Made by a program: the position numbers and the translations under genes. This document shows, one piece after another, positions 4,375 through 47,347 of a stretch of 64,000 nucleotides of DNA. The notes under the pieces are model-generated. The model was not told where the DNA came from, searched no databases, and saw only the letters and a list, made by a program, of their open reading frames with translations. The stretch is from Massalongia carnosa (taxonomy: Eukaryota). Each line of letters opens with the position of its first letter. Within the stretch, counting starts at the first letter, position 1. The DNA is taken from positions 1,922,001-1,986,000 of the forward strand of contig OZ287070.1 in the NCBI GenBank assembly GCA_965645245.1, given 5' to 3'.

Positions 4375-4578
4375 TTTCCTTGAATAAGTGGGCCCTGTTG
4401 ATAACAGATAATTGTGGAAAGAAATTGCTGCCGATTAGCCGGCTAGAATAAAATATTTAATAAAAATAAAAATAAACTACTAACGATCGATGGCATGTTT
4501 CTTAAGAGAAATTTGTTCAATTATGTGCTTCGCTCACTTTAATCGATTAAAATTGGTTATGTTTAAACTATCCGTGCC

Positions 4579-4821
4579 CACGCGGTGCGAAAAAAAGTTG
4601 ACACACCAAAACTCGTCAGTACGCATAAAACTACACAACTATCAAAGCTTCAACATAATATAGAAAATCAACAACAGATGAACCAGTAAAACAGACTTGA
4701 TAGAGTAATAGAGTTATGTGTTCAAATTCACCTTAACTTTTTTGAAATGTATTACTTAACGATGTAGCCTATCATAATTATTTTATATTTTTGGTGTGTC
4801 AACTATTTTTCGCACCGCGTG
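4579..4821. mobile_element. MITE M1 (243 bp), CACG...CGTG termini, inserted in the left TIR of the Fot1 element
   Basis: About 33-bp TIR CACGCGGTGCGAAAAA(A/T)AGTTGACACACCAAAA, AT-rich interior, flanked by direct repeat CCGTGCC (4572-4578 and 4822-4828). Confidence 0.9.
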
Positions 4822-4950
4822 CCGTGCCACCCACATCGCTCGGGTCGCCTCGCTTAGTGCTAGCCAGCCATACAACCCAACTCAGCCATACAACCCAATT
4901 CGTCAAATTTCAAGCATTTACCTTTCAACAATTTATCATCCATCACCACC

Positions 4951-6597
4951 ATGCCTGAATCATATACCGAAATCGAAAGTCGCATTACGAAGGCTATTGA
5001 CGCCTTAAAAACGCGGAAAAACGCGAAACTTCGAGCAATTGCACGAGAATTTGAAGTGCCTAGAGAAAGACTTCGTTCTCGATATCATGGGGCCCCATCT
5101 AAATCAGAGATACGAGGACTGCATACTAGACGTCTGAAACCGGATCAAGAGTCGGCCCTATATATGTATATCAAGAAACTGGACTCTTTGAACATACCTG
5201 CCCGATTGCACATGGTGGAAATCGCAGCAAATTCTATTCTTCGTCAAACAGCTCCTGTTTCGGAACCGCCTCCTTTGATCGGGTCGCATTGGACCAAGAT
5301 ATGGTTAAATCGTCAGCCCGATTTATTCAAAGTTCGACGAAAACCTCTAGCTGTTGAGCGAAAAAATGCGCATGATTTAGAGTTGCTAATGGCTCACTTT
5401 ACAAAATACAAAGAGGTAATTGATGAGTATGGCATAGATCCTCAAGATCAGTGGAATTTTGATGAAACCGGGTATCGCATTGGCATGGCACGTAATGATT
5501 GGATAGTCAGTGCATCAAAAGACCGAAGGATCTATAATAACGATCCATCAAACAGAGAATCACTGACCGGAGTGGAATGTATCAATGGGACTGGACGAGA
5601 TATTCCCCGTATGCTGATTTTGACTGGTATCAGCATTCTCGCTCCCTTTTTCCTCAACGATCTTAGCAATGATGTTCTTATTACTACTGCTGAATCAGGT
5701 TCTTCAAATGACTGGCTGGCCTTGCAATGGATTAAACACTTCGATAAACACTCTCGAAACATTCGAAAGGGGGCATGGAGACTGTTGATTATGGATGGAC
5801 ATGGATCTCATCATACTCGTGAGTTTTTAGAGTATTGTGACGCTTATAACATCATTCCATTTGGATTACCATCACATACCACTCACTTATTGCAACCGCT
5901 TGATGTATGTGTGTTTCAGCCTTTAAAGCATTGGCATTCCGAGGCTGTCAATGAGGCCATTCAGAACGGTGATGAAACGTTCTCGAAAGTGGAATTTCTA
6001 GCTGCATTCAACACCTTTCGGGCAAAGGCCTTCAAATCAACAACGATTAGGTCTGCATGGAGAAAAACCGGCCTAATTCCATATAATCCAGAGGTGGTTC
6101 TTCAAAAGGTCAGAGAGAGTTTACCACCCCCCCGCGAGATTACCCTACCCTCGTCGATTCAATCAATACAAGAGACCCCTAGGACTGTCAGACAATTGAG
6201 TACAGTAGCCGCAGACATTATGATGCATTCCCGTTGTTCGGATGAACTTACACAAATGATAGCAAAATTTGTAAAGGGGGCTGTTTCGGAAGTCCGAAAA
6301 GGAGAACTTCTCGGACAACGATGGGATAAACAAACAAAGGCCAAAAAAGTTCGAAAAGCACGCAAACGAGAGAGCAATAAGGTACTTCAGATTGGGGGCA
6401 TACTTACTGCACGAAAGGCTCGATCAATGATTCGTGATAGACAGAATCAGGAGGCTCAGAGGGAGAAGGATCGAATGATCGCATGGGAAAAGCGATATTC
6501 TTTGGCACTGGGCAAGGTTGCTAAACAAACCAAAGCTCATCGAAAGTTGAAGATGACCAAAAGTATGAATAGCATAAGAGATAGGAGGAAGTACTGA
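4951..6597 (+). CDS. Fot1/pogo-type DD35D transposase (HTH + CENP-B-type HTH + DDE_1), intact
   Basis: 548 aa; LRAIAREFEVP HTH, WNFDETG, LIMDGHGSH, THLLQPLDV with 35 residues between the 2nd and 3rd Asp. Confidence 0.95.
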   Translation: MPESYTEIESRITKAIDALKTRKNAKLRAIAREFEVPRERLRSRYHGAPSKSEIRGLHTRRLKPDQESALYMYIKKLDSLNIPARLHMVEIAANSILRQTAPVSEPPPLIGSHWTKIWLNRQPDLFKVRRKPLAVERKNAHDLELLMAHFTKYKEVIDEYGIDPQDQWNFDETGYRIGMARNDWIVSASKDRRIYNNDPSNRESLTGVECINGTGRDIPRMLILTGISILAPFFLNDLSNDVLITTAESGSSNDWLALQWIKHFDKHSRNIRKGAWRLLIMDGHGSHHTREFLEYCDAYNIIPFGLPSHTTHLLQPLDVCVFQPLKHWHSEAVNEAIQNGDETFSKVEFLAAFNTFRAKAFKSTTIRSAWRKTGLIPYNPEVVLQKVRESLPPPREITLPSSIQSIQETPRTVRQLSTVAADIMMHSRCSDELTQMIAKFVKGAVSEVRKGELLGQRWDKQTKAKKVRKARKRESNKVLQIGGILTARKARSMIRDRQNQEAQREKDRMIAWEKRYSLALGKVAKQTKAHRKLKMTKSMNSIRDRRKY

Positions 6598-6706
6598 AGG
6601 AATTGTTGAAAAAAACCCCGATGTATGTAGAGGAGTAGCATTTTGGGTTGTATGGCTGGCTAGCACTAAGCGAGGCGACCCGAGCGATGTGGGTGGCACG
6701 GATAGG

Positions 6707-6980
6707 CACGCAGTTGACAAAAAAAATAACACGAAAACCACATCAAAATCTTGTTCGCATCACCCCTTTACACATGATTAAATCATATTAAACCACAATA
6801 AAATCACATAAAAAATCATCATGAAAACAACATCATTGAATAAGATATGGTATTACTTTAGAGCATTGAATAAGATATGGTGTTACTTTAGAACATCAAA
6901 TCTGCACTTTCACTTATCAAATCGGAAAACCTAAACGTACATTTATTTCTACACATTGTCATTTTTTTGTCACCCGCGTG
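6707..6980. mobile_element. MITE M2 (274 bp), CACG...CGTG termini
   Basis: Imperfect TIR CACGC(A/G)G(T/G)TGACAAAAAAA. Right flank CTAGG (6981-6985); left flank reconstructs to CTAGG once the Fot1 element is removed (C4568, TA, GG 6705-6706). Internal 30-bp tandem duplication 6834-6893. Confidence 0.85.
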
Positions 6981-7442
6981 CTAGGTCAAACGCTGATTCA
7001 GTAGACAAGCTCATTAATATACGCCTCAGCAAAGTGTTACTCAACCCGACCTCAGAAACAATACCTCTGAAGACAGGGTTGCGCAATATCATCCTGCCCG
7101 CTCTTAGCTTTATGTGCTTAACGATCGAAGAAAAGAGATGTGGATGAGGGGTTATGACTTGAAGGGGACGATTCCTTGCAGCTTCGTCTTTCTCCTGCGT
7201 GAGAATGTAGCCATTGAACAAATTTATGAAAGACATCCATAAAGGTGATGGATGAACGATAAATAGAAAGTAGTTACTTGACTCAGATCATTGTTTAAAT
7301 GAAGAGAATATAAACTGATTTTAATACTGGAAGGAACACCCCATCATGACCGTCGCGCCATATGATGCAAGGACCCTTTACTCCTAATGCAGATGCAGAA
7401 TTAAGACCTTATAAGGTCAAAGGCGAATGACACATAGAGCCG

Positions 7443-9536
7443 CTAGCTTAAGCTAGCCCCCTTGAACCTCTTAGCAAGCTGATCGCCATCCAACGTGTGC
7501 CCAAAGTTCGAAAAAGGTGAGGGGCGTTTATGGGGGCGCTCACCACTTTCCTGCAAAATAGCCAGCAGGGTTGCCCATCCGGGAGTGTTAAGAAGTTGAA
7601 GCTCTTCTGCGATATCATGTGAACAAGCCACGCGGCATAGGAGAGCTTCTTCGTCCTGTCATTTGACAAAGTGGGTCAGCGTAGGTTATTATGTAAATCA
7701 CGATACAGAAGCATATGTACCTTACTGAGTATATCCATTCCACGCAGGAAACAAAGCAGGTGAAAGTCGGAGGCCGATCGTATTCCTTGCTGGGCATCAA
7801 CCTTACTTCCGCTGACCCCTAGCTTCTTGGCAATATTTTTCAAGTCTTGACTCTCCCCCATAGTTTCGCGATTTTCAATGGCAAAATCCGACGCAACGAA
7901 ATATGAAGCAGATTCTTTGGGAAAGCCATGGGTCAATGTGACAAGAAGATATTCAACAGGAAAGCTTGGCTTTGCGTTCTCCTGAACGCTCACCCCGTAT
8001 TCGTTGATCCGCCTATAAAAAACCTCAGGAATATACCACGCGCTAGCCAGACTCTCATCGTCTTCTTCCCCACGAACAATCATCACCGACGGGTCTGCTG
8101 AAGGCTCAACAATGCCCGCTCGTATCATTTCGACCGCCGAATTGGAAACCTGGAATGCTGTGATGGCAATACCTCCCTGCTCGTCTCCACTAAGGACACA
8201 AGTAACAAAGTTAGACCCAAACCGTCCTGTATCACTCCACTTTGTAGGCTTGGGATTTTGAGCTTGCAATGTTGCGGAAAATGCAATCTCAAGTGAGGAT
8301 AGGTAGTAGGAATCGATATGGCGCTTGCAAAGAACATTTCCATCACCTTCGCCAGCATCAATAAGGTCTGTGAATATCACTCCCACCTTTTGTAGCCCAC
8401 ACAAGCGCGCCACGTCATCCACTTCTTTCTCGTTTCGCCAATCCTGCAACGTACAGCCATCGATTTCATCAACCTGTGGAGGTTCGTAAATTGCTTCCAC
8501 AACGGCTTTGATACCCAGCGGAACCTCCAGGTACTGCTCATAGTGACCGTACAGAAAGCCCACACGCTGTGTGCCGCTGACTCTCCAGAAGTTCAGAAAA
8601 GAGTCAATGAGTGAGGGTGATGAGAACTCCACATGATCTATCATTCGATAGGGCTGGGACTGTAATGTGATTGCACTTGGCTGGCATTTTGTACAGATAC
8701 CTTCTGGCCAAGGTGGATGCCCGGAAGGACAATCCCGTCTTACTCGGTAAAACGGTTCGCTAAGGGGCGGCATGTACGACGATTTCAGCTCGGGTTTATT
8801 CGTGGAGGAGTTAATCTTCCGCAAATATGAATGGAAGGAGAGGTGTTTGATTTTCTTTTCCGCAAGGTAGTCGGCCGAGAACGGTTCGAGAGGCATGCAG
8901 TAGTCGCACATCCCCTTTTGTCCATGCTTACACATCTTCTGATCTCGGGGTCGAGCGATCTTACCATCTTGCTTGTCGAGTTCATTATCCAGGGCCAACT
9001 GTTGGACAGCTTCCCAAGGATTCTTGATAGTGGCAGTGGGAGAGGTAGAGGCAGGTAAGGAAACAGGTAGGTCTACTGCCGAAACAACAGGGTGTCCGTT
9101 CAATCTATTTGATGAGCTGTGCGGCTGTGAGGAGGTCGTTGAGAGTCCGTTAACAGGCGGTTGGTCTTGGTACTTAAGATATAGTTTATCTCCATGCCTA
9201 AAAGCTTCTGATCAGCTCCGCATATAGTGAAATAGTAGAGCACATACCGCAGGCCGACTCTATCTATCGCGATACCCTTTAAGGAGCTTAAAAGCCTGTC
9301 CTCTCCGCCGAATGGCTTGTTTGATAAGGTAATAGAGCGAGAGTCTACATTATTTGGTAAATTGTCTAAAATCTGTGACCAACACGTAAGCTTTATTGAT
9401 CTAATGAAAGACCACATATAAAAAGTGCAGTCACCTTTGACAAAAGCGACGTGAACTGATCAGTAGGATTCACCGTCAACCGAAATTGACCGTTTTTACT
9501 CTCAAAGCGCAATAAGATAGGTTTTGCTTGAGACAT
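7443..9536 (-). CDS. NPL4: Nuclear protein localization protein 4 (Cdc48-Ufd1-Npl4 cofactor), spliced
   Basis: [20 protein letters not shown] start; zinc-finger motifs [14 protein letters not shown] and [28 protein letters not shown] and [15 protein letters not shown]; three GT-AG introns inferred. Confidence 0.95.
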
Positions 9537-9897
9537 AGCGTGTGGAGGAGATGGTGAGATACTAATATGAAGGTTGAATACTCATTTTACACTGGTTTTA
9601 CCAAGGGCTCGGAAGGAAAATACTCCACCAATTTCTCAAGCATTTATGAAGAATGGGTGCTGTTCTCCGGTACGTCAACGTCCACGTCGGCTACTCCCGA
9701 TGAATCCTTGTCAGCCCTACAACGCGGAGTTCGGCATTAAGCTTTTGTGTTCGTTGTCCTTTCTTCAGGCTGTCAGGTGTTGTGACATAAGGGATGTCCA
9801 TTCATTGATTTTCAAAGAGAAGTCTGATTAATTTGTTTTTCCACAACACTTCTGCCATTAGCTGAATTTAATCTGGACGAGAACAAAAAAGACCGTT

Positions 9898-10822
9898 ATG
9901 GTTCACTGGATTGGCCTCATTGTGCCTTTTGCGTATCTCAGCCTTCTAATTGGATCGCTGGCAACTTTCTCTTCACTCTATCGGAGACGGAAAGCAGGCA
10001 AGTTCCATCTGTCGCGCCTAGATCTGCGTGCGCGTGCACGCGGGATCTTGCAGTTGTGAAAGCAAACTTACTGTCAAATAGCGAAGTCCACCTCCTTGAA
10101 GCCATGGTTTGGACCCCATCTTCAAAGAGACATATATCTTTCACTGCTTCACCTCGAACCAGAACCTGGCCAAGAAAGACCGCCAACTGTTCCTGAAAGC
10201 CTTCTTAAAGCGGCATTGCTTCAGCGGGCCACTGAAGACATCCACCGCGTTCTCGCAATACGGAGTGCCAAGCAAGCTTTAAGTAATCTAGTACAGAGAG
10301 GGAGTGTAGGAGATGATTTATGGCAGAGGTATCTAAGAGCGGAGAAAGAAATCGAGGCGGAGCTAAGGGACGTGGTTGAAGAGGTACAGAAAGCCATTTC
10401 AAGGTTACAGAGCCTTTTCTGACGGATCTTAAAAGGCGAATGCACTAGCTACAAATTGGGGGAACACTATCTTTCAGAGCGCCAATGAGATGGTTAACAA
10501 TCAAATAATCCGCCAAAAAGTGGCCGCTCTCCAGGCACAGGGTAAAGCAGACCGCGAGTGGTGGGATAAGGAGAGAGCTAGCATTCAATCTAAATTCATG
10601 AAAGAGTTAGACGAGGTTTCGGTTGGTGCGGGCGCTGGTGTTGGAACTGGAGCTGGAACTGGAACTGGAACTAGCTCCGCTCCTACTAAGTCTACGACAA
10701 CACCTGGTGAGAGAGGAGGCAGTGATGAAGACGCTGTGCTGGTAGAAGGTGGAGGCCCGGCAGCTTCAGGGTCCGTGACGAACTCGAAAGCTAGTACGAA
10801 GAAGCGCAAAGGGAAGAAGTAA
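9898..10822 (+). CDS. SEC66: ER translocation complex subunit Sec66; introns 9998-10081 (GC-AG) and 10384-10435
   Basis: MVHWIGLIVPFAYLSLLIGSLATFSSLYRRRKA (TM), then KPWFGPHLQRDIYLSLLH, LLKAALLQRATEDI, GSVGDDLWQR, EANALATNWGNTIFQSANEM. Confidence 0.9.
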
Positions 10823-13800
10823 TATCCATCCAAAATCAACTACTTAACAGATGGCCAGCACTTGGTCACGTTACTATACCCATGACAAGACGAATCTCTA
10901 CAAAAGCTGGTTTCCATATCCTCACTCGGTGCAGCTATACTTGTTCACACTCTCGTGCAAACTGACTAAAGAATATAGCGATTTGGGCCAATCCCATGAA
11001 CGTCTCTATTAGCATTTCAGTACACTTTAGATATATCTAGAGTGCGCTAGACTCATTTTTCGCTCATTTTTTGTATATTCACGACACGTCATCATTCCTT
11101 TTCCCTTCACTTAAGTTTGAGACGAAAAAATTCCCCGGAACTTTTACCTGATCTTTTATACTATTGCAAAAAAATCTCATCCTTATCTGATGTGTTCAAT
11201 CCCTATATAACCAAACAAGCCAGGTTTCTGTCATTTTTTGTGTTGTGGGGGTTTCTTGTCTATATTAGTAGTGAAAGTTTTGATGTCCAGGTTTACTTTT
11301 GATTTACTATAAGGCTGCTACTACCCATTGGACAAGGGGCCACTTTGCAACGTTTCAAGCGCCAAAAAGGAGAAGGTTGAAATACTCAAGAATGCCAGCG
11401 GTTAAACAGCTTGTCAATTGTGGAGTCTGAACCTTAATCTCCAGTTGCTAGCAGCAGGACCACTGATGTTACTCGCCGCATGAAAACAAGACATCTCGCC
11501 AGCCAAAACACTTCCACCGGCGATCATTATACCGGCTTGGTTAAAGTGGATGGAATTATAACGGGCATGATGGTCAAGAACCAAAAACCGAGCGTGGTGA
11601 ATCCATGCAAACCACAAGAATACTTGAGTAAAGACTAAAAAAAGAATTAAAAAAAATCTCTTCACAGGCATAATCTAGGTGTGTCCTAAGATATGAGCCT
11701 ACTTTTTGCGCATCTATTTTTTGTGAAATCCAGCTTATAGAAAAATAATGAATAGGCTACACGAAGCAGTCGAGGCGCCAGGTGTGGTTAATCTAAGTTT
11801 TATAAAAAATCCTTATTCTCAACAGTTGATAAAATATATTCAATTTCTCGGTTTCATGAATGAAACATCCTATCTACATGCACCAAGATTCCCTGCGAGC
11901 TTTCGGTGGCTCATCGGAATGTGTTTGAAAATCCCTCAGCATCAATATTGAGGTCATATTCGAACCTCAAGCTATGAACTTACCGACAAGAAATCCTGTT
12001 TTGTCATGAATGCCTTGATCTGTTTATGCGGGTTAATCCCAAATTTATAGAACTCCCTCGTATGTGAAGATAACCGGTCACAGCTTATGTTCAAGAAACT
12101 TATGAACAGCCAGACTTGCAGAGTCCTAGTTCTCTATGTGGACTTAATCAGAGAAATGCCGTGGAGAGTACGACATGGGTTGAGTCATACATGGTCAAGC
12201 TGGACTCTACCCGCCTGATACTGATTCTCTCAACTTCCCATGTAGTTTATGCTGTAAAAATTTAAAAGGAAGAAGCGTTGAAACACTCGAATCTCTTCTA
12301 ATAAATTCAAGTCAAAACCTTAAATATAATATTGTGGAAGCCATATACTCTTACCACCGGCCTTGCCAAAATTGTGATCAAGGAACTCCCATTGTACAAC
12401 GAGGAAATTTCTCGCAACGCGCTTGCTGCTTCTTGTCATATGCATTCTTCAGACATTATAAATACTGAAACCAAGAATCATGCCAATCAAATACAAATAC
12501 AAAACTGTAATGATTATTGGGTGGAGAGGGCCCTGACGAGTCGAGTCCACAAAAGGGGCAGCAGTGATTGGGCCTACACCCAAATATCAATCACCGGTAG
12601 TGTTTCTTTTCGCTGACACTAGTAACATCATACTCCAGCTCTCCCGTTTCAATGTTGATCTGCCAGCAGCGTTGAAGTTGAACGCAGCTATAAAGATAGT
12701 CTAGAAGTTGGAACAGGCTCTTAGTCAGGTGAAGGAGTCGAGGACATGACAGATAATGTAGGATACAAAGACCATATGCCATCAATCGGCTAAATTCTCT
12801 CACATTTTTTCCAAGGTCCTCGGTTTTTTACTAGCCGGATGGCAAATGAAACTCATCTTCGAGCCCGTCCAAAGCTAAATGTAGCTTTAGTCGCACTTCA
12901 CTGACGCTTCTAGGAGTGTGTTTGCCCGACTTCCTTTCGCTAAGCGTCATGGCTTACACTCACAGATACAATCAATATCAATTCTATGAGTAATTTGGTA
13001 GGGGTGCAGCTTGTGGAGATAGGTCGACTTTGATGATGTCTCGATGGCTTCATTGCTGCAAAGCCAGTCCCGCTCTTCATGATATATAGGGAAATGCCAG
13101 GTCTGTCCAAGTAGACAACTGTAAAGAGTCTTAGAGAAAGAGCAGATGTTCAAGGATTCGTTAATTTCCTTTCGGTTGACGAAGAATAGTATCATATAGT
13201 ATGTACGCTCACTCCTTCTTTGCTGCCAAAGCACTTGTGACTATCATAACTGATTTGCTTTTCGTTTTCGATAGCCAGCAGTTTCGATTATTTACGAAGA
13301 TAGCAGATGACGCCATCACTGAGAAAGGAGGAGATGTGTGGTTGGGGGGAATATGCCTCTGAGCCGGAGCTAACTACATTTTTCCATTTTTCATGGATAT
13401 CTCTCTCCTTTCCCTACTGCACAGAAGCGGTTGGCACCTTTTTATTGTTGTTGGCAGTCAGCATTTGCACGACCTGAGTCGTACGCCCGAAGATTCGATT
13501 GCCGCTAATTTGTCATCTTGGCTTGACGTGAAGAAGAGTTTTAGAAAGCTTGACAAAAGGTAGAGATCCCGCTCAGGATAGGCTACGGCTACATGAGTAG
13601 AGATGAAAAGAGACAGGGATAGCATGATGCCCACTACCGCTTATTTCGCATTACATTTTTTGAGAGGATATGTCCATGTTCTCAAAGTCCGAGTTATTTA
13701 TCTTCCACGTATAAGCTTTACTTCTTTCTTTCTTCGGTCTATCCTTATTCGTCATCACTCTTTCTTTAGTCAAATAAGTTGGTCTTCTATCCAAATCGGA

Positions 13801-14036
13801 GAAGCTGTCTAGCTTTCGTTGAACAAGTTCTGAGTCAACACTTCCAATAGCGCCTGCGATAAAACAGCGATCCACCTATATCGTTACGTGATCGAATAAA
13901 TCAGTAGGCATAGAAAGCTTTAAAAAAAACTCGAATAAATAGTACATAAGAATATAAGATATAAAACGAATTTTTTTGGTGTAGAGAATGAGTAGTCGAT
14001 TTTTTATGGACAGACCGATGCATGTACGGAGGATGA

Positions 14037-15656
14037 CACGAAAAGTCCTTGTTAGCGCGCATTAGTGCTATTTAGCGTCCTTTCTACATGACGCTAGTAA
14101 GTAAAAGGGTTTTTTTGTACATTTTGACCTGTTCAGCATCAAATATCATCAAAATAGATTTTTGTATGCTTCAAATATGACCTCACGTACTCAGAACAAC
14201 AGTCTGACCATTGGAAAAAAGTTACAAGCATTATCCCTGATTGAACATGGCATAGCAGCCAAAGTCGTTCAAGCAGTCACCGGAGTTTCCACCCAATCTA
14301 TCAGCTATCTCAAACGTAAGGCACGAGATCGAGGATATGATCCCACTATTTCACGAATATTGAAGGTAGAATACGTGCAAGATGCACCTCGTTCAGGACG
14401 TCCTACCAAAGTGACGCCTGAGGTAGAACAGGCCATTTTAAACAATGTTCGTCATGATCGAAATGGTAGAGAAAAATCCTCAGCCGTTTTGGGATATGAG
14501 CACGGAGTTTCAGCTACAACCATTCTCAATGTTCTTCGACGCAATAACTTTCGTCCCTGCAAATCTACCATGAAACCAGGTCTTGATTCAGCGATGAAAG
14601 ATGCTCGATTGCAATTTTGTTTGCGTCATCAACACTTGACTCTCGATGATTGGAAGAATGTTATATGGAGCGATGAAACCAGTGTCGTGTTGAACTCTCG
14701 ACGTGGACGAAGACTTCAATGGCGAACTCCAAACGGAAAATATGCTCAATCGTGCGTCCGACGTAGATGGAAAGGATGTTCCGAGTTCATGTTTTGGGGT
14801 TATTTTTCGTATGAAAAGAAAGGACCTTTTCATATATGGAAGCCGGAGACAGCAGCAGAAAAACACGCCGCTCAGAGAGATATTGACAAAATCAATGAGA
14901 TATTGGAGCCCGTAGCGAAAGAGAATTGGGAGTTGGGAACGGGCATGCAACGAATGGGACTGCGTACGAAAGGAGGTCGAAAACCAGCCTGGAGGTGGAA
15001 TGAAACGCATGGAAAAGTGGTCCGAAAATGCAAAGGGGGCATCGACTGGTACCGTTATCAGAAGGTCATTCTTTTACCCAAACTTCTACCCTTTGCCAAA
15101 GAATGTATGAAAGATCGTCCCGGTACTATTGTTCAGGAGGACAAGGCTCCCTGTCATACTTCTAAACATCAGAACATCGTCTTTATGGATGCAGGAGTCC
15201 TGCGTTTGTTGTGGCCGGGTAATTCTCCCGATTTGAACATGATCGAGCAATGTTGGTACTGGATGAAAAAAACAAACCACACGTAAAGGAGCACCTCGAA
15301 ATCGCATTACGGCCATCAAAGCATGGACACAGTGCTGGACAAAAAGTCTGAAACAGGAACAAATTCAGCATTGGATAGAAAGAATTCCAAGACATATACA
15401 GGAGATCATTGCTTTGGACGGAGGAAACAAGTATAGAGAGGGTCGAGACAACGGTGTGATTAGGCCATATAATTCCGAAGATCGTCGCAGTCGCTATCGT
15501 AAAGACATCATTGATAACATTGGTAGGTTGATGAGGTCTTTCGTTGAAAATGAGGTTGATGATGGGGTCAAAACGGGTGGTGTGGTGGGGTGGTGAGGTG
15601 GTGGCGTTACGCTAAATTCTTAGTGTCATTCTTAGCGCATCCAAGGACTTTTCGTG
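14037..15656 (+). mobile_element. Tc1-like (IS630-Tc1-mariner) DNA transposon
   Basis: 15-16 bp TIR (A)CACGAAAAGTCCTTG at 14036/14037 and CAAGGACTTTTCGTG(T) ending 15656/15657, enclosing a transposase; no clean target duplication. Confidence 0.88.
14177..15596 (+). pseudogene. Tc1-like DD34E transposase, frameshifted at an A7 run (15266-15272)
   Basis: PRSGRP, WKNVIWSDE, VQEDKAPCH, WPGNSPDLNMIE (D34E). Removing one A continues into ...IQHWIERIPRHIQEIIALDGGNKY, the usual Tc1 C-terminus. A sequencing homopolymer error is also possible. Confidence 0.82.
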
Positions 15657-15662
15657 TTACTA

Positions 15663-17794
15663 CAGTCGAACCCCGCTATAGGGAAGTTCCGTATAACGAA
15701 AACCTCGGCATAACGAAATTATTTTTCGGAATTTTTGTAGTTATATGATAAAAACCTCGTTATAACGAAAAACCCTTCTATTACGATATAACGAAATTTA
15801 TTTTCATATTTTTGGTGACGTTCGTTATAGCGAGGTGGTAAAACTATCATATATTTGCTACGATTCTGCTGTAAATATGTCTCGAGAATGGCCTGCCTCC
15901 ATGTCTTTGTCAACTTCCCCCCTCGAAAAAAAACCCGTCATGGAATCACGAATATTCAGCGAAAAGCTCTTCGGGACTGGTACAATGATGATTCAAAGAA
16001 TAAAGTGACTCAGAACGACTGTCGCATGTGGTGGAAAAGAGAGTATAATTATGTGCCTGGGAGTGCATCTATCAGCGAGATTCTTAGTTCCAAATATGCT
16101 TACTTGGATGATAAAGAGGAGGCGAGTTCAATCAAACGGGAGGTTATTCCCAAATGGCCTGTGTTAGAAGATGCTTTGTTCGAATGGGAGCAGCGATATG
16201 AACAGGCCAGTCTCACTGTTAATGCTGACGTGCTACGGACCAAGGCCACCGAGTTGTGGAACAAACTGCCTCAGTATGAAGGTATTCCCACTCCGAAATG
16301 GAGCAATGGCTGGCTGGATCGGTTTAAAAGACGACGAGGACTCAAACAACGCATTCATCATGGCGAGGCTGGTTCAGCTGATCAAAGCGAAAATGTACAG
16401 CAGATAATGACTGATCTTCGTAAATTAGTATCTGAATATGCTGCCAAAGACGTTTATAACATGGATGAAACAGGGCTTTTTTGGAAAATGGCACCCGATC
16501 GATCTCTTGGTACTGAGAGGCACGCCGGTCAGAAGCAGGATAAGGTGTGTTTTTCACAGTAAGCTGCTTCGATTTGCCAGAGTTCTAATTATAACAGGCT
16601 AGAATCACTGCCTGTCTCACATGTAATGCTGATGGGGTCGGATAAACCTGATATCTGGTTTATTGGTAAGGCCAAAAGGCCAAATTGTTTTCGGGATGCC
16701 AAAATTCATGGACTGGAGAATGTGGGTGCTGTTTGGAGGTATAATCCCAAGGCCTGGAATAACAACATCATCATGAGAGAATATTTGCATTGGTTAAATG
16801 GTCATATAAATGGACGATCGATTTTGTTGTTGATGGATAATTTCAGTGCTCACGAATTGGCTGTGAAAATTTTGATGGATGAAGGTAAATAAATCAATGT
16901 GTTAACGTTATAATTAATCATGACATCGTTTCTAAAACTCGTCTATCCAGGTGTTTTGCAGAATATTCGCATTGCGTGGCTACCTGCAAATGCCACCTCA
17001 TTACATCAACCTTTGGATCAAGGCATCATACAAAACTGGAAGGTCTATGTACGAAAACAACTCGTCCAGTTTATGGTAAGTTCTCTCGATGCTGGAAAAG
17101 ATCCGACTGCCTCCATAAATGTTCTTCGTGTCATTCGATGGGGCATTTCAGCATGGGAAAACGACGTCAAACCTTCCACCATACAGAACTGCTAGGGGCG
17201 ATCAGGAGTCATTGATTGGGGTTCAGCACCCTTCAATCAACCAAGAACCTCGAGATGGGTCGAGTCCGAGACTTTTTTGCAAGAGATTACACAGGACATA
17301 TGTCAGATGCAGGTCATGGGTAGAATAGAAGAGGCGATGAACATTCATCAATTTATAAACCCGCCCGAGGAGGCTATAGGGGACACAAATGAAGATATTA
17401 TGAATGATATCGTTTCACGATATGCGGAGCAGGAAAGGCTCGCTGAGACGGATGAAGAGGTGGAGGTTACACCTGTTATAACGGTCTGTCAAGCACAGGA
17501 GGCTTGTAGGATCCTGAGACTGCATGAAGAACAGCAGTTGAAGGGCGATATGGGCATGCTTCGTCAATTACGAAGGCATGAACGGGGGCTGTTTGAAAGA
17601 CGGCAAAACAGTCAAAAACAATCTACTTTAAGCACTTGGGTAGTTGCTGGGGACAAGGGGGAATTGGGAGTTTATAGGGGGGCAAAGTAGTAAATTTACC
17701 ATGATTTTCCCCATCTCCCCCGATATAACGAAAAACCCGCTATAACGAAATTATTTTGGTAAAACGCCACCATCGTTATGGCGGGGTTCGACTG
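15663..17794 (+). mobile_element. pogo/Tigger (CENP-B-related) DNA transposon
   Basis: TA|CAGTCGAACCCCGC(T/C)ATA ... TAT(G)GCGGGGTTCGACTG|TA; multiple subterminal TATAACGAAA repeats at both ends. Confidence 0.93.
15888..17690 (+). pseudogene. Intron-containing pogo/Tigger transposase with in-frame TAG at 17193-17195
   Basis: CENP-B HTH (LEDALFEW...SNGWLDRFKRR), YNMDETGLFW, intron 16545-16597, LLMDNFSAH, intron 16885-16950, TSLHQPLDQGII. The frame continues past the stop to 17690. Confidence 0.88.
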
Positions 17795-17807
17795 TATGTA
17801 GCTCCTA

Positions 17808-17844
17808 ATCGTGCCACACCACCAGTAATCGTTTTCGCTTACTA
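17808..17844 (+). repeat. Orphan Fot1-like terminal inverted repeat
   Basis: TA|ATCGTGCCACACCACCAGTAATCGTTTTCGCTTACTA; starts like the Fot1 TIR (TA|TCCGTGCCAC) and recurs at 43438. Confidence 0.6.
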
Positions 17845-25413: not shown

Positions 25414-25473
25414 GTGTGTCTGTGTGAGTGTGAATGTGTGTGTGTGAGAGAGAGAGAGAGAAGGGGGGGGGGG
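25414..25473. repeat. Compound (GT)n-(GA)n-G run microsatellite
   Basis: Seen directly: gtgtgtctgtgtgagtgtgaatgtgtgtgtgtgagagagagagagagaaggggggggggg. Confidence 0.85.
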
Positions 25474-25846
25474 AAGAAATATATCATAGGTAGGTACTCG
25501 TATATAGCCAACGATACTAAAAGAAAGAATTAATTAATTAATTATAAATGGAATTAATATCGTCAGAATTCCTCCGTTGCCCCACTATTTCCCTCATGTC
25601 ATGCCAAGTCATGCCCCCTGGTATCTCCAAGCCCTAACCTAACCGCTCCTTGCCTCCTTTTGACTTCGTTAGAACCCTAACCCCCTACCCTTCTTACGAT
25701 TCAAAGCACAAACGCAGAACGATCACAAAAAAATGGCCCACAACCGCTCAATGCTTGTAAAAATAGAAAACAACAAACGTAGAAAATCGAGAATAACAAA
25801 AAAACTCACTACCCGAACCAACAACCTACCAAACCCACAAACCCCC

Positions 25847-27947: not shown

Positions 27948-28856
27948 GTGAATTGATAGAATCCCATCACACCCAACGACCTAAGCAAGGTACCGACTTA
28001 GATAATCAATGATGAAATTGCCTACCCTCGCCACTTTCCGAGAACAAACTCGGAGATCTTCTCCAGGCTCAGTTTCACGTTTCGAATGGTTCGTTCATCT
28101 CCTTTACTCGTTGGTGGCCTCATCTAGTTAATGCCGGGAAATCGAAAAGGAGAACCCTCCTTCCCTCATCCGTGCAATGGTACTAGTACCAATCACCCAA
28201 AAACCAAAAACCCCATCCTTTGTTTGGTGCTCTGGTCTGTGAAGATTTTTGCTTGTTCCAAAGCTTGCGGGTCATCCCCATTCTTGTCTCCAACTTGCTA
28301 TTGCCTATCGGTTGCACTGCTTCAATATAAGCTATGCATGGCCCCAACTCAAATCTGCACATCAGATCATCATGGTTATAACGATGATACTGTGTGCTGC
28401 ATGCTCACCGCAACCCCCGTCCCCGGAGCAGGGATGAGGTGAAAGGGGGATCGCCGGCGCTATATGAAACGTGCACCGCTTGTCTCGCCGTCACTTTCGC
28501 TAGGAGACTTCAGTCGCGCTGATTTAAGGTTCATGAATTGTAATGGATGGAAAGGGATGATAGTCATGATCAGTCAACGAGCATGAGAGCAGGTCTCATA
28601 ATTTAAATCATGTGCTGCAGAGGTCTAGAGAACCACATAGGAAATACAAATTCATAAAGCTGGAGCCTATCGAACGCGTGGGACGACCCAATTGGCTGGC
28701 ACTGATGCCTGTGCGTAGGTTGCCGTGGAAAAGCGGAAATCTCGAAGACTGACCGCCTGCCGGAGAAACTCTATAGACCCAGAAGCTCTGTAGAAAAATT
28801 GAAAATGAATAAGCAGATCCGCACCGCACAGACCTTTCATGTATCGCCCCTTGTAA

Positions 28857-28926
28857 TGTGCCCAGCTCGATGTGCCAAACTCGATGTGCCAAATTCGATG
28901 TGCCCAACTCGATGTGCCCAGCTCGA
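28857..28926. repeat. Five copies of a 14-bp tandem repeat TGTGCC(C/A)A(G/A)(C/T)TCGA
   Basis: Units start at 28857, 28871, 28885, 28899, 28913. Confidence 0.9.
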
Positions 28927-28997
28927 TGGGTACCACGGGCACTCCTTTACTTTTTGTGCTGTATGCTGGATGGGACACGTGTGATGGCAAGAAGAGC

Positions 28998-36884: not shown

Positions 36885-37533
36885 CTTTACTGCACCTGGC
36901 CTTGGCTCTAATAGTAGAATATGCCTTGGATAACCTTTGTAAATGTGAGAAAAGTGTTGAACAAGGCAAACTTGCCATATTTTCATTTTGAAAATTTGCA
37001 GACGAAGGAAGGCACGATTCAGAACTTTGAATCCACCTTATTCATTGATGGTATCTGGTGAAGAAAAACCAAGCAGAAAATGGAATCCTTTGGCTCCGCT
37101 ATACTGCACATAAGCTGAGGGTCGTTTGCCCAACTACACATATGACTGTGCCATTCGCTATTCGGCTAGATACCTTCCCTCCCTAAAGAAGCAGGCGCAT
37201 AGTCGGCCAAGATACAGATGCGTAGGTGCGTTATACGAAGATATATACGGATGAAATATGAGGGACAATTCGAAGAGTGAACCGGTAAGATAAATGTGAT
37301 GTAGCCACTCGTATTAGGTCCTCCACTTGAAACTTGATGACGCCCTTTGCGATGGAAGCTACCATAAATATCTGCCATATAGAGGGTAAGCGCGATAGAA
37401 CGATGAAGAAGTGGGTTTAAATGTCTGAATCCGTAGCTACTTCATATTGACACTTAGGTTTTGGTCGAATGGGGCACGTACCAACAACTTCAGGGATCGC
37501 TCGTTCCCTTACCTTCACGAGGGAATATCCAGC

Positions 37534-39377: not shown

Positions 39378-39834
39378 GAACGTTTGGATGATTCTAAAGC
39401 CACAAGTAGTTCGCCAACATTGTTGATACGGAATATGTATGAGTTCTGAGTGATGAAGGGCCGGCTACCATCGGCTCAACTTCTCTTCTCCTCACCTTGC
39501 CGTCCTTTCCGCACTTTCTTGGAAGGGATAAGACCTTATCCATGATAACTACTATTGGGCCTCTGAAAGAGACTGTACCAACACATGGCGACACGAAGAT
39601 AGCTAATGTTGTCAAAAAAAGGCTGCCAGGAATAAAAATTCAACATCTAGCAGGAAGAAATTTTTATTCGCTCGAGTACTTTACATATTTGCAGCACCAG
39701 TCTCCCCCCCCCCAAAGCTGGAAATACAGCATATGAGACTCGGACCTGCAGAAGTATACTCTCCTGAACTCCCGCAAAGCTCACACGGTTTTGAAAGATT
39801 TCCCCCACCTCCCAACCACAGTACTCCCTCCCCT

Positions 39835-41806: not shown

Positions 41807-42207
41807 ATTTCGGAGACGTTGTTAAAAGATGTGATGATTCAGGCAAATCAAGCTGAATGACAACTATTAGGATTTTTTCGTTTTGGGAGAAAGATAGAAG
41901 AAATTGAGTCGCTTGGCCCAAGCAGATAGATATGCTGCAGAAGAGGCCACGATTCGTCTCTTAAGTTCCACAAATTTCGCTTCTTTTCCAATGCTAGTTA
42001 GACCGCTAAGTTTAACCGCGTAGAAGTACAATTAGTTAGCTGACTGGGAAGTCAGATGACAAACATATGCAAGTTTGTATACAGAGTACTCTAGGTAAAA
42101 GGATTTGGAAGGTATAGTCGATACGATAAAATGGTAGTTAAACTTACATTGTTTTCTTTTCGGCCCGGTGTCTTGTTATTTTACGCTGTCTAAACTCCAC
42201 ATCTATC

Positions 42208-43096
42208 ATGGAGAACTTGCAGAACTCCGCACCAGAGAGCGATGACAAGCTCATTACATCAAATGATCCTCAACATCCTGCAAATCTAATCTGTACGTTG
42301 TGCCGCAGTTTTTACACTCTTGGATGGGTTACTGGCACAGGAGGTGGTACCTCCATTGTCCATGGACCTCATATATTCATCGCCCCTTCTGGTGTGCAGA
42401 AAGAGTTAATGCAGCCGTCAAATATGTTCGTCCTTGATAGATCCACCCGCAAGTACCTTCGCAAACCTCCTATCCTGAAGCCATCTGCTTGCACGCCGTT
42501 GTTCCTGGCTGCTTTCGACAGAGGAGCTGGCTGCTGCATCCACACTCATAGCCAGTGGGCGGTGCTAATAACTCTGTTGGTCGAAAGAGATGCCATTGAG
42601 AGCAAGGAGAAGGTTGAGGATAGATGCTTCGAGATAGAGAAGATTGAGCAGATCAAAGGAATCCCAAGAGGGAGAAGAAAAGCCGGGATGTTGGGTTTCT
42701 TCGATAGATTGAGGGTGCCAATCATTGAAAATACCGCACAGTATGTTCCGTGGTGTTGGTGAGAGTAGAATATTCCGGCTAAATACTTGATTAGCGAGGA
42801 GGATTTGACACACAGTCTAGAGATAGCAATGGATAGATATCCGGACACATATGCAGTCCTTGTCAGGAGACACGGCGTGTATGAGTCTTTGAAATCTGCT
42901 ATGAGCATGACGCTGATTGCGCTTCAATAGATACGTATGGGGCGATGACGTTCACAAGGCCAAGACGCAAGCAGAGAGGTAAGAATATGGACCCATTGTA
43001 CTGCAGTCTTGACTGATGCTCCGAAGCTTGGACTACATTTTTCGCTTGGCAGTAGAGATGAGAAACCTGGGGCTTCCATGGGTGGTTTCATCCTGA
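42208..43096 (+). CDS. MDE1: Methylthioribulose-1-phosphate dehydratase (methionine salvage), three introns
   Basis: [51 protein letters not shown]. Confidence 0.94.
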
Positions 43097-43437
43097 TGAT
43101 GATTTGATCATAATAGCTGGCGTTCCCGTTAAAGGAATTGAATCGAAGCTGAAGTATGGATCATCACGTTCAATATGCCACCATACAATCAGTAATAAAA
43201 GAATATGCCAAGAACCTCCCAACTTTGAAATGCTGATCTATATAGCTTCTGAAAGTAAAGGGGCTATTTGACAGCGTGACAAAGATTTTTAACTCAGGTG
43301 AGCTTCAGCACTTTCGAAATGAGACGTTTGCGACCTGTCTTGCCTCGGAGTTTGTTAATTACTTTACTGCATGCGGAAGAAATGACGATGTCTGACCTAT
43401 TTACACGTTGAAATGAAATCGTTCAAAATGTGAGATA

Positions 43438-43494
43438 ATCGTGCCACACCACCAGTAATCGTTAGTAAGCGAAAACGATTACTGGTTATGGGGC
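43438..43494. repeat. Collapsed TIR pair (left end joined directly to inverted right end) of the same family as 17808
   Basis: TA|ATCGTGCCACACCACCAGTAATCGT followed by TAGTAAGCGAAAACGATTACTGGT, the reverse complement of 17821-17844. Confidence 0.65.
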
Positions 43495-43503
43495 TTGCCT
43501 TGG

Positions 43504-43733
43504 CACGCAGGTGACAAAATTAAATTTACACCAAAATTTCCCCCCCACCAAAATCATTGTGATTTAATGCCTAAAAGTTTGCAAGCAGTGATTGATGATG
43601 AAGACAGAATGGCAGATTATTGATTTAATTATTAAAGTTCAAAAAAGCATGAAATTAACTAAAAAAACGCTACTGTTTATGATCGAAAATCCGGTGATAG
43701 GTTCGGTGTAAATTTAATTTTGTCACTCGCGTG
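43504..43733 (+). mobile_element. MITE M3 (230 bp), CACG...CGTG termini, deletion derivative of a Tc1-like element
   Basis: 29-bp TIR CACGC(AG/GA)GTGACAAAATTAAATTTACACC; direct repeat CTTGG at 43499-43503 and 43734-43738; 43561-43623 translates DLMPKSLQAVIDDEDRMADY*, resembling a Tc1 transposase C-terminus. Confidence 0.88.
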
Positions 43734-44027
43734 CTTGGCTCTATGAGCCGGCTAAGCCCCTCCGGGTAAGCCTATTTCGCTAAGCCCCTTCGGGTTAGCG
43801 TCGCTGCTGACTAACATCAGTTCGATAGCTGATGAGCGCAAAACTCAAAATTACGGCTAGATCCGCGTAATAAAATTTTAGCAGTGCAACTTTTCCTTTT
43901 ATGGATTTAATACAATGAATAGGGTCGTATTAGTTTACCATAGACTGTAATTTATACCAAAAACGCACCTCTCAAGATGGATGACTCGATAATCATGTGT
44001 TATAACCACTGTCAGGCTATAAAAAGC

Positions 44028-46215
44028 CTAGTCATGTAAATCCGCGCCGCGCGGCTTTACAGAGTCAGAGGTAGCGGACGGGGCACTTTCTTTCTTGTCT
44101 AGATCGTGTCGGAGAAGGGCCATAGGTACATTCAGTGACAACGCTTCCATAGGATCTCGAGGCGCTTTTTTGGTCTTTGATGCCTTCATCGATGATTTAA
44201 GAGCATCAACATTGTCAGAGATATTGTGATCAGGCGCAGGATTCTCGCCCGATGGCTCCGTGCTCTCGCTTTCCTTCGAGACTTTCTTCTTGACCGCATT
44301 TTGCTTTTTAAAAACCTTTCTCGACATATATCCTTGTTTGATCATCCAGATTTTCCTCCGTTCCTCTAATTCAATACTGGCGGAGTTGCATGTTAGCCTG
44401 TGTAATCGTTTTCGCTTTATGTCGTTGTGTCGTTTCCATTCCTCGAACATGTCTCCCTCGTCTAATCTCATCGCTTGACCCCGCTTTAAAATTTCTAAAA
44501 GATCGGTGCCGTAGGGCAGCCCATGTGTTACCAATCCATCGCCGCATGGTGGGCTCGTCCACAATCTGATCCGCCCAAGTGGTCAAAGAATTCAGTACCT
44601 CATCGGGCATTATCAATGATGGGAAGTATCGCATATGTGAATTTGGGAACTTTTCCTGCGCCTTGGCCTCCCTCCATTCTCGAAGTTTAAGGGTGAACCA
44701 AGGCCGCCTAGATGAGTCACGCTTGGCCGTTCTATTTAACATCTCATTGGCGGCTGTTGATGTCTGAAAACTTGGATCGCAAATTGAACAGCAAGGTTGC
44801 GGCTTAACATAGGCCGACGTTGGATACACTTTATCATTGAAGAAATTCAAGCCAATACCTCGAACGCATCCATCTGAAGGCACATTGATTATCTCCCAAA
44901 GACCCGGTGGCATATCTCGTCGCCGATCAGCATCCTTTTGATTGATGCAGCGTTTACTGGCCTTGGATTCAATCTCGATTCCCGCGTCATCAGATCCGTC
45001 CTGTTCGTCCATTTTTGATCCGCTTCTTGGACCTATGCACCAAGAAGGATGCAAAAGAGTAAAATGCGCTTGTCCTCGACCGCAACGCAAAGCACGACCT
45101 AAACGTTGATATAACTTCGCCATTGACGAGGGTAGCAACCATTGCGTAACTCTCATAACGTCTGCATTATCAATACCAAGCCCGTATGCATCCGTTGCGA
45201 TCAGGATTCGAGGAAATTTACATTGATCCGAGGGCATTTCGAAGCGAGCCGCAATCCTTTCTTTGTCTTGGGTGGCCATGTCGGAAAAGAGAGGCGCGAT
45301 CCAACTAGCGGCCTCAATTGGATAGGACAATTGATTCATCCATACTTTCATTAGCGCACACGCCTTTTTGATAGATGAAATTGAATTCATGAAGATAATC
45401 GTTTTCGGAATATCAAAAGGACTCTCAGCCCGTGTTGGTAAAAGATGTTGAAGATCGATCATGCTGTTCATAGGCCTCTGTAAACTGCTTATCTGTATGT
45501 ATATCTCTGGACGATCAAGCGCTGTTTGAATAACAGTACTTTCGTTATCAAAGTCACAGCGATCTTTAACGCTCTTTAGGGTTTTTGGATCCAGCGTTGC
45601 AGACGCACCCAGAAAAGGAATACCGTCTGGTAATCGTGTACGAAGCACACCGAGCTTGAAGTATTTGGGCCGGAAATCTCGCCATTCGGATACAAGATGC
45701 ATCTCATCAAGAGCTAAAAGACATAAATTCAAGAAGAAACTTGGATGCCTCAGAACCTCCTGATTAAACAGCTTTGACGTCGCTATCTCTGGGCTAGTAA
45801 AAACTATTCATATTAACGAGTAAGTTTTTATATTTATCTCAATCATAATTTGAATACACACTATGCGTATAATTGTTTTCACGAATTAACTTTAATTAGA
45901 AGAATTATTGCTATCACCGTCCAACACGAAAGGCTTGCATCCCTCGGTAACGCTCAATTTCTTGCACTGTTGAGCTTCTAAGGTCTTGAGAGGTATGATA
46001 ATTAAAGCGATCTTAAGACAAGAGAACATTAACGGCATAGCTTGAAAGATAATACTCTTTCCAAATTCAGTCTTGGCGATAAATATCAGATCCTTTTGAT
46101 CGTGTGCCAAAGTCATAATAGCGTCAACTTGCTCATTCTTTGGCGAAAAGCCGAATTTACTTAAAATCACGGTCGTCACCTGCTCGCGAGTTATCGACGC
46201 TATAGGATCGTCCAT
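44028..46215 (-). pseudogene. RecQ-like SF2 helicase, frameshifted near 45893 and 44520; intron about 45804-45861
   Basis: AKTEFGKS (altered Walker A), HIFTSPE, LDEMH, FRPKY, GASATL, IATDAYGLGID, QRLGRALR; Zn-binding C...CCSIC; HRDC-like LREWR...IMPDEVL. Confidence 0.85.
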
Positions 46216-47347
46216 TTAGATGTGTTTGCGAGCGATATTTGACGATTCGCGAGTTGGATTCTTAGCCCGTAAAACGCACATCAAGCAGGTTCATCACATT
46301 CAACGATTTTTAGGCCCCGTTCGGTAATCTCCTTATTGTCAATAAGGAGCCTCCTCCTTGAAAAGATGGAACCTCTTTATAATGAAAAAGGCCTTCCGTT
46401 CGGTTCGGCCTCCTCCTTATTTTTTAAGGAGTCTCCTTCGCGGCAAGTTCTATAATTGGTATATTGCAAAGTGTCTGCAGGGATTGTTGCAGGGGGCCAA
46501 AAGAAGGTGGTCGCGAGGTCCTTTTTTTAGAGGAGGGTTCTATTTGCCTCCGTATTCGACGATTGTATGTCTTTTAAATATGGAACACTACTTGTAGCGA
46601 CGATCGCAAACAGCGACGGTTATCAATTTAATCTTGATGAGAATTGTTCCCAATCTAATTCTGACTACTCAGCATGAGTCGAATAGAGGCAAAGAATATA
46701 CAACGAGTTTACTTACTTGTCAATAGCTTCTTATTGTAACCGCGAATAAGACGCTATAAACGCACGGACACTAGCTTATTCAGGGGTGCAAAAAGGAGCA
46801 GTCTTAATGTTACCGAACAGACCCTTAGGCTTTCGAAAACAACGCTCGGAGGATCAGATTAGTGATCAGAAGCGCCGACAATGAAAAACTGGAGCTAGTG
46901 ACCCGTTGAGTCTGCTGTGGTGGTGTCGAAATTTCGAGTCAAAGTCGAGTCCTCGTCGCGAGATCGATATTGCGACTCAATTCTGCATCGATATGTAATT
47001 AAAATATTGATTAATCGATAGAATGTATATCAAAGCATCATTTCTATTACTAAATAATTTATGAAATGTCGTTGCGCGTTGTTGATTCCGCCGTCAACTT
47101 GATTCTTGATGATTTTTGAGGTTAAGCAAAAAATTTGTATGAGCGCGCACCAAAATAAGCCGGATCTGACAAAAATACAGAGTTTTGCGCTTAGACGTAG
47201 CATGCGTAGTCAGCTAAATGGCCGCTAACCCGGAGGGGCTTAGCTAGCTCATAGAGCCACGCATGAATTACTATAACTACGGGCACAGACCCACTAGTTA
47301 GTTACAGTAGCGCGGTTTCCTTTGCGCGTTGGCTACTGTACTCCGTA

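Follow-up and report, generated by a model that had tools for sequence, protein, structure and literature searches.

Introduction

Several mobile elements are drawn to the ends of others: IS4321 and IS5075 insert in the terminal inverted repeats (TIRs) of Tn21, IS30 and IS911 beside sites that resemble inverted repeats, and miniature inverted-repeat transposable elements (MITEs) occur nested. Factor-bound sites are used in other cases, exemplified by Tf1, which is directed via Sap1, and by pogo-derived CENP-B proteins on long terminal repeats (LTRs). Here, a stretch of 64,000 nucleotides from Massalongia carnosa (GCA_965645245.1, 52 Mb in 25 contigs; OZ287070.1, positions 1,922,001-1,986,000), in the following termed the window, is analyzed, in which seven elements of four kinds form three tight stacks. 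Stack A comprises the MITEs M1 and M2 and a Fot1/pogo-type transposon, stack B a Tc1-type element, a Tigger/pogo-type element and half a copy of MITE O, and stack C another copy of MITE O, an Academ-like helicase-carrying transposon (helicase element) and the MITE M3 (Table 1). An earlier note on this DNA had claimed that M1 to M3, termed CACG elements, all lie within about 8 bp of another transposon's terminus, and had proposed either targeting of transposon ends or narrow safe-harbour hotspots common to several superfamilies. Clustering of transposable elements as such is ordinary; the lasting results are a Tc1-like clade that duplicates 5 bp and the selectivity with which it uses the repeats of other elements.

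Transib transposons combine CAC termini with a GC-rich 5-bp duplication. They are reported as absent from fungi in the matched passages of PMC5751038. Elements of the IS630/Tc1-mariner (ITm) group in general generate TA duplications, as stated in the corresponding passages of PMC10045372, and those of PMC3164196 describe Sagan as a fungal ITm branch that duplicates TA and carries a long insertion between D and E. For the P element, the relevant part of PMC2577343 reports that better-matching palindromic sites become hotspots.

Classification of the CACG elements

The CACG elements belong as MITEs to an ITm transposon of 1.3 kb (DD37-38E) with CAC...GTG ends. Longer copies of 1.3 kb (L103, L107, L330 and L334) consist of short TIRs around a single open reading frame (ORF). 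The encoded transposase of about 370 amino acids contains DDE_3 and HTH_Tnp_Tc3_2 domains and is similar to SB100X (E 1.6e-10), and a match to NF033545 lay below the cut-off. The predicted fold of its confident structural model (pLDDT 81) is closest to Mos1, Sleeping Beauty and SETMAR; no match to RAG1 was obtained for this protein, only ITm matches. In L100, 37 residues separate the second D from the E, with a short insertion after the second D relative to Sleeping Beauty. Among 155 homologs, 46 could be read by a regular expression, and these showed mostly spacings of 37 (19) or 38 (9) residues, with 34 residues in 4. The DD34E signature of the strict Tc1 family is not found in the CACG transposase.

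The longest exact duplication was 5 bp in 35 of the 50 CACG groups. Relatives are numerous, forming 233 clusters at E < 1e-30. Of 255 metagenome loci the best 80 were analyzed, and 41 of these had a recognizable TIR pair, of which 35 were distinct; these relatives carried an exact 5-bp target-site duplication (TSD) in 22/35 cases, a TA duplication in 0/35, and the same target logo. Because the TA duplication is absent, the CACG transposon belongs to the ITm group by its protein but is not a canonical Tc1/mariner member. The existence of a clade with a Tc1/mariner fold, a 5-bp stagger and TA outside the cut is well supported and highly probable.

Target sites of the CACG transposon

The CACG target is a palindrome, TA-N-CCWGG-N-TA, of 3.6 bits, with the TA recognized beyond the cut, at -3/-2 and +2/+3. 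The target logo (n=40) shows T in 62% at -3, A in 62% at -2, and C in 54% and 49% at TSD positions 1 and 2. It was repeated in 23 metagenome sites and in 25 new pairs; as the latter were required to have a 5-bp match, they support the logo and not the TSD length.

The matrix score peaks at the tips of other elements, namely at Fot1 +1 and +6, O -8, Tc1 +1, Tigger +8, and -1 and +3 of the helicase element. Insertions were located on such peaks by M1 (Fot1 +1), a copy of M3 (C5, at O -8) and L297/298 (helicase element +3). Averaged over the tips, however, the score is only 1-2.5 times the background, which indicates that the consensus sets the register of insertion and not its rate. The corresponding value is 0.96 over the solo-LTR family LTR-A, and both values together indicate that sequence alone does not give the enrichments reported below.

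Insertions near the ends of other elements

CACG insertions were collected genome-wide in two sets. The discovery set was found by genome search with M1, M2 and M3 and holds 46 independent insertions outside the window. The second set was based on an end pattern with 311 genomic matches: of the first 100 matches listed, which lie on contigs 1-5, six had already been collected, and the other 94 ends yielded 68 independent insertions. Repeat ends were mapped by an all-against-all comparison of 0.9 Mb after scripted removal of the CACG elements, and the null distribution was drawn from random positions in 200 kb of the genome. The genome-wide rates are lower bounds, as the library of repeats has gaps and represents the families of the window best.

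The proximity claimed for every CACG element holds for 3/3 in the window, but outside it the script placed only 7/114 insertions within 10 bp of another end (4/46 in the discovery set, 3/68 in the second). Two of the three second-set cases are internal LTR breakpoints, which leaves 5-6 true ends by eye. Within 50 bp of an end lie 10/46 and 9/68 insertions, respectively. Of the random positions, 0.52% lie within about 10 bp and 1.75% within 50 bp of an end, and 8.9% in repeats. For 6/114 insertions near ends, the binomial p is 3e-5, or 3e-3 if only non-ORF DNA is counted. Insertions close to ends are thus about ten times as frequent as under the random null, although the majority lie elsewhere and interiors are used as well. 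The statement that no CACG element sits inside another element is contradicted by 29/114 insertions in repeats (6/46 and 23/68), often within solo LTRs and subterminal regions.

Around the 46 discovery insertions no spike at element tips was found, and end density is broadly flat over 0-50 bp. Terminus density is 4.2 per kb at 0-10 bp, 0 at 11-20 bp and 4.4 at 21-50 bp, followed further out by 1.3, 1.0, 0.7 and 0.55 per kb, a decay over 100-200 bp. The suggestion that M1-type copies might recur at the same position of other Fot1 elements was not borne out, as one of 32 Fot1 TIRs was interrupted and 31 were intact.

For Fot1, O, Tc1, Tigger and the helicase element, 4/120 outer flanks (three junctions, one of them weakly supported) abut another end, possibly an undercount, because the filter drops ends that face the focal element. 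None of the Tc1 (0/14), Tigger (0/16) or helicase-element (0/35) flanks did so. A larger group of 33/120 flanks within 12 bp of an end was rejected, because BLAST alignments had run past the boundary of the focal element itself. With no tip spike and no abutting Tc1, Tigger or helicase-element flanks, the proposed targeting of termini across superfamilies is not supported. Only the CACG family shows the strong preference, with a few-base register that is predicted by the target consensus, an aspect absent from the earlier note, and the stacking in the window is the extreme of a modest, real tendency and no rule of the genome.

Another stack was noted in L100 (2124-7242), where an autonomous CACG element has pieces of the helicase element inside it and an M1-type element lies 12 bp from its end.

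Preferred repeat families

LTR-A holds 12/132 CACG sites, compared to 0/120 flanks of the five other families (p 4e-4). With at least 155 copies of less than 300 bp, it makes up about 0.1-0.2% of the genome, which corresponds to an 18-109-fold enrichment of CACG elements. One LTR-A nucleotide is occupied in 4/16 copies; two of the four are one segmental duplicate and two CACG subfamilies are involved, so that 2-3 independent events are represented. Likewise, one nucleotide in the TIR of P, a pogo-like TIR family, is occupied in 3/42 copies and additionally marked by an excision footprint, amounting to at least two events; here too two CACG subfamilies occur, and two rows are perhaps one composite. 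The score ratios of these reused sites are only about 10.

Apparent CACG excision footprints, composed of the duplication, CAC and the duplication again, were seen in a MITE O TIR (L193) and in the P family (L142), the latter at the position where L007 carries M1. Such 3-base CAC footprints would be as expected for Tc1-type cutting. The P family itself (L336, G000:C15:906830-908760) is 1.8 kb long and TA-flanked, with long TIRs and no ORF above 150 amino acids; it also occurs in 100-bp hairpin forms and is often nested near Fot1 and Tigger ends.

The heptamer TAAGCGA was the top 7-mer around the discovery sites in an unbiased scan (7/45, 0.68 expected), from which one mis-paired row had been removed beforehand; the possibly composite rows L327/328 and L311 were dropped before the k-mer ranking of the replication set. 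Named in advance, TAAGCGA was replicated: it occurred eight times in the 5,580 bp no more than 60 bp from the sites and twice in the 16,819 bp farther out (p 2e-7), the duplicate L317 being removed before counting. Genome-wide it lies within 30 bp of 13/311 CACG ends but of only 1/263 helicase-element ends (Fisher 0.0025; 0.024 with nine distinct sites). It is present in the Fot1 TIR, MITE O, the P TIR, LTR-A and both TIRs of one autonomous CACG subfamily, and lies at most 40 bp from all three CACG elements of the window.

Some readings were discarded in the course of these analyses. L024, at first taken for a Fot1-like TIR, is LTR-A; the motif in L297 lies in a CACG relic and not in unique DNA; CGTG near CACG sites was too weak as a driver (9.5 vs 5.2 per kb); and mimicry of the element's own TIR was rejected as sole cause, as most CACG subfamilies lack the motif.

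Structure of the three stacks

The stacks were built by successive separate insertions and are no composite unit. Each window junction is unique among the copies examined. Several distances in the earlier note were off, as true ends had been misplaced, and were corrected by means of other genomic copies. Assembly chimeras are not evident either, as single-copy contigs bridge outer junctions: contigs of single-copy depth from two runs, which may be the assembly's own sample, span host-Fot1-M1 (4000-4607) and M2-host-Tc1 (6925-14067) without differences, one bridge consisting of two overlapping pieces.

Table 1. Features of the three stacks, with positions in the window
Feature	Position	Strand	Remarks
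Stack A			
Fot1/pogo-type transposon	4571..6702	+	DDE_1 + HTH_Tnp_Tc5; 59-bp perfect TIR; 98% to other copies
M1, CACG MITE, 243 bp	4579..4821	.	8 bp inside Fot1 left TIR; 100% identical to another copy
TAAGCGA, Fot1 left TIR	4850..4856	-	about 21 bp from M1
TAAGCGA, Fot1 right TIR	6667..6673	+	about 33 bp from M2
M2, old CACG MITE	6707..6980	.	TSD CTAGG, right copy 6981-6985; best other copy 83%
Stack B			
Tc1-type (DD34E) element	14027..15657	+	TA duplication; HTH_Tnp_Tc3_2 + DDE_3; right TIR without last 9 bp
Tigger/pogo-type element	15663..17794	+	TA duplication; HTH_ABP1_N + HTH_Tnp_Tc5
Half copy of MITE O	17808..17844	+	TCGCTTA at 17835-17841
Stack C			
Damaged full copy of MITE O	43438..43494	.	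TAAGCGA at 43466-43472; last ~6 bp missing
Academ-like helicase-carrying transposon	43495..47263	-	helicase ORF 44371-45807; internally deleted
M3, CACG MITE, 230 bp	43504..43733	.	TSD CTTGG; 9 bp inside helicase element left end

In stack A, which begins some 200 bp upstream of where a G-patch gene starts, both distances given in the earlier note were confirmed: M1 lies 8 bp inside the left TIR of Fot1 (4579 vs 4571), and M2 begins 4 bp past its right end. Fot1 is flanked by its TA duplication (4569-70 and 6703-04) and contains a transposase ORF at 4864-6597. Since C-TA-[Fot1]-TA-GG rebuilds the CTAGG duplication of M2, Fot1 was the inserter and M2 the target. M2 was therefore followed by Fot1, which entered the M2 duplication, and then by M1, the youngest element of the stack. 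This nesting order fits the identities to the best other genomic copy, used as a proxy of age (83% < 98% < 100%). The duplication of M1 comprises 7 bp (4572-4578 / 4822-4828) and is the sole 7-bp case among the 50 groups, the family norm being 5 bp. It is best read as a putative TSD CCGTG plus two extra bases, with a target score of +2.9 bits for TA-T-CCGTG compared to -6.5 for the alternative reading, and suggests an aberrant stagger or repair. Elsewhere in the genome, seven M1 loci have one common flank (L012, L013, L015, L019, L021, L025 and L028); there M1 is carried within another replicating repeat.

In stack B, which is located in a 10-kb gene-poor stretch, Tigger does not, as first read, follow an intact Tc1 end at 6 bp. 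The Tc1 TIR is 9 bp longer, starting at 14027, with a loose right end at 15657, and Tigger sits in the decayed Tc1 tip. The supposed orphan TIR does begin 13 bp past the Tigger end (17794 to 17808), but it is half a copy of MITE O, a family of hairpin MITEs of about 68 bp. Runs of a TACGGAG motif were observed beside Tc1-family insertions in L154, L158, L159, L163 and L182; these are possibly footprints or repeated use of one site.

The end of stack C lies roughly 150 bp upstream of the probable start of a helicase gene. An additional terminal stretch of about 24 bp, beyond the TIR as first read, is present in 29/29 other copies of the helicase element shown, and for this reason its true start is at 43495. 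M3 is consequently located 9 bp and not 3 bp inside the element, where it lies across an earlier 18-bp deletion of the left TIR (target score 4.75 bits). The presumed collapsed TIR pair 6 bp upstream is the damaged MITE O, which adjoins the helicase element with a gap of 0-1 bp. A full helicase element is a 6-kb unit with TIRs that encodes a DUF6589 protein and a superfamily-2 helicase. The window copy measures 3.5 kb instead of 6.0 kb; the DUF6589 transposase is gone, as are about 20 bp and the TSD at the right end. The TSD of the family is 8 bp in two readable flank pairs (L113 and L100) if the ends are TTGCC...GGCAA, and a third pair is unmatched. Genome-wide there are 263 exact matches to its end, and small TIR deletions are frequent. 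By eye, 5/29 left flanks of the helicase element (L072, L076, L085, L086 and L095) lie in an LTR family different from LTR-A, and the favoured LTR may differ from one family of DNA transposons to the next.

Contigs of another strain (run X1) show the same M2 right end and half MITE O. One contig stops at 4479, and the strain also has about 150 additional bases near 11392 and a joint from 12899 into Tc1-like sequence at 15532; as read from the contigs, these differences near the stacks would be further insertions or a deletion. Missing cover in X1 and in the low-depth run X5 is uninformative about window structure. A lichen-metagenome run contains 0.73 of the sampled words from one host stretch. 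Fungal-type genes in the window include NPL4, topoisomerase I, the calreticulin family and a SWIRM amine oxidase. A 14-bp tandem repeat of five copies is present at 28856-28942, and telomere-like AACCCT tracts are scattered at 25673, 27825 and 27925.

Origin of the stacks

The stacks represent successive independent insertions, probably into small, tolerated, accessible patches, and three layers may contribute. In the first, which is displayed by the target sites themselves, the CACG transposon cuts with a 5-bp stagger inside its TA-flanked palindrome; the ends of TA-duplicating elements provide a TA followed by a GC-rich TIR, and CACG flanks provide TAs for TA-inserting elements. Two such elements that meet thus come to lie 0-9 bp apart. 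In the second, visible as a pattern, CACG elements, in contrast to the other families, are strongly drawn to LTR-A, P, MITE O and Fot1 TIRs, well beyond what the sequence consensus accounts for. In the third, this draw would be regional, extending over 0-100 bp with no fixed spacing: the favoured repeats are most likely promoter-like stretches beside genes that are poor in nucleosomes or bound by protein, where insertions would be neutral and thus survive. Accessible or protein-bound DNA acting at the insertion step is given a probability of roughly 0.58 as the source of the excess. Several points weigh against it. At a rate of 5-12%, 3/3 CACG elements near ends is unlikely (1e-4 to 2e-3 per such window, with about three such windows expected in the genome), so that an extra local factor or blindness of the library elsewhere is likely. 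Open chromatin as the sole factor should also draw the helicase element, Tc1 and Tigger to LTR-A, but 0/65 were observed there. The contig pieces listed, which concern stacks A and B, cover none of the inner junctions M1/Fot1, Fot1/M2, Tc1/Tigger and Tigger/O, and insertion bias and survival bias are inseparable in one genome.

The heptamer offers a more specific mechanism, in which a protein at TAAGCGA, whether from the host, of pogo/CENP-B-like type or the CACG transposase itself, would tether the transpososome, with insertion into the closest well-matching palindrome at a distance of 4-65 bp. Its excess in the discovery scan, the replication set and the genome-wide ends, its occurrence in otherwise unrelated target elements and its proximity to all three window CACG elements are consistent with tethering. 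Most cases, however, come from two repeat families, which would raise any k-mer within them, and two LTR-A 7-mers rank above TAAGCGA in the replication set. DNA without library match holds only three sites within 30 bp, where about 0.7 would be expected (hand-calculated p, about 0.04), insertion positions in LTR-A range from -13 to +95 of the motif, M1, M3 and L330-type elements lack it in their own ends, and it occurs in only 2/79 metagenome flanks. In about 85-90% of sites the motif is absent. Tethering is regarded as rather unlikely. Survivorship alone, that is random, consensus-led insertion after which selection spares copies in or beside junk, often small elements, would agree with long ORFs covering 58% of random DNA but only 3/49 CACG junctions. 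MITEs O and P measure 70-110 bp and LTR-A less than 300 bp, so any insertion in them is near an end, and no dinucleotide bias of the repeat-induced point mutation type was seen, so that neutral copies persist. Yet selection should act on all families alike, which the 12/132 versus 0/120 in LTR-A contradicts; few insertions use long neutral interiors, a random position within repeats lying at a median of 400 bp from an end, and identical nucleotides of modest score are reused. This makes survivorship as the only cause improbable.

Targeting of termini as such by all superfamilies, through bound transposase or bent DNA at TIRs, is suggested by the composition of the window stacks, by further cases seen by eye (L071 and L100), and by three distinct junctions in the 120 flanks of other families where about 0.5 are expected (p 0.017). 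It is nevertheless very unlikely in view of the Tc1, Tigger and helicase-element flanks, the flat end density and the single interrupted Fot1 tip, and three of the window 'ends' are broken or truncated. Composites or segmental copies do exist elsewhere, as the seven same-flank M1 loci and L330/L333 illustrate, but the unique junctions, intact TSDs and single-copy contigs over the outer junctions render composite units or assembly chimeras in the window scarcely credible.

Comparison with known systems

TA duplication is treated as a hallmark of Tc1/mariner elements, a family used for gene delivery, and a 5-bp clade lends itself to testing what sets stagger length and target choice. If the pull of LTR-A and pogo TIRs acts at insertion, this would be a eukaryotic DNA transposon that uses other elements as safe harbours. 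A more far-reaching scenario, in which a widespread, undescribed ITm clade exchanged the 2-bp TA cut for a 5-bp stagger but continues to read the flanking TA, and in M. carnosa is steered by a TAAGCGA-bound factor onto LTRs and TIRs, so that it would parasitise promoters and ends of other transposons as safe harbours, is speculative and rather unlikely as a whole. No description of a 5-bp-TSD ITm clade, of this targeting or of the heptamer was found in the literature, with Repbase, Dfam and subscription journals outside its scope, and the matched passages of PMC9977792, PMC2817418, PMC10085805, PMC11544213 and PMC2836289 contain nothing on them. The chance that the clade is undescribed is about even, the comparison with Repbase and Dfam lying outside this estimate.

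The CACG transposon shares with Sleeping Beauty, Mos1 and fungal Tc1/impala the type of transposase, short TIRs and 3-base footprints, and differs from these ITm elements by its GC-rich 5-bp duplication, its CAC...GTG ends and the 37-38 residues between D and E. Sagan is likewise a divergent fungal ITm branch, but the CACG clade has neither TA duplications nor the long insertion. CAC termini and a GC-rich 5-bp TSD are common to CACG elements and Transib, so structure-based annotation may mislabel CACG MITEs as Transib, whereas their transposase is of ITm type and not RAG1-like. The helicase element may correspond to AcademH, pairing a DUF6589 protein and a superfamily-2 helicase within a 6-kb TIR element; its TSD would be 8 bp in the two readable pairs, compared to 9-10 bp in AcademH.

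As in the palindromic staggered-cut model of the P element, the CACG target motif is wider than the TSD. This hotspot model covers the layer of sequence targeting, but reused CACG sites score only moderately, and a motif match alone is insufficient for their reuse. The bias of CACG elements to terminal repeats of other elements appears analogous to IS4321/IS5075, IS30/IS911, nested MITEs, Tf1/Sap1 and CENP-B. In contrast to those systems, it is partial (about 10-25% of insertions) and regional: most CACG insertions do not use a fixed position of another element's end (5-7/114 within 10 bp), and several unrelated repeats serve as targets in place of a dedicated one.

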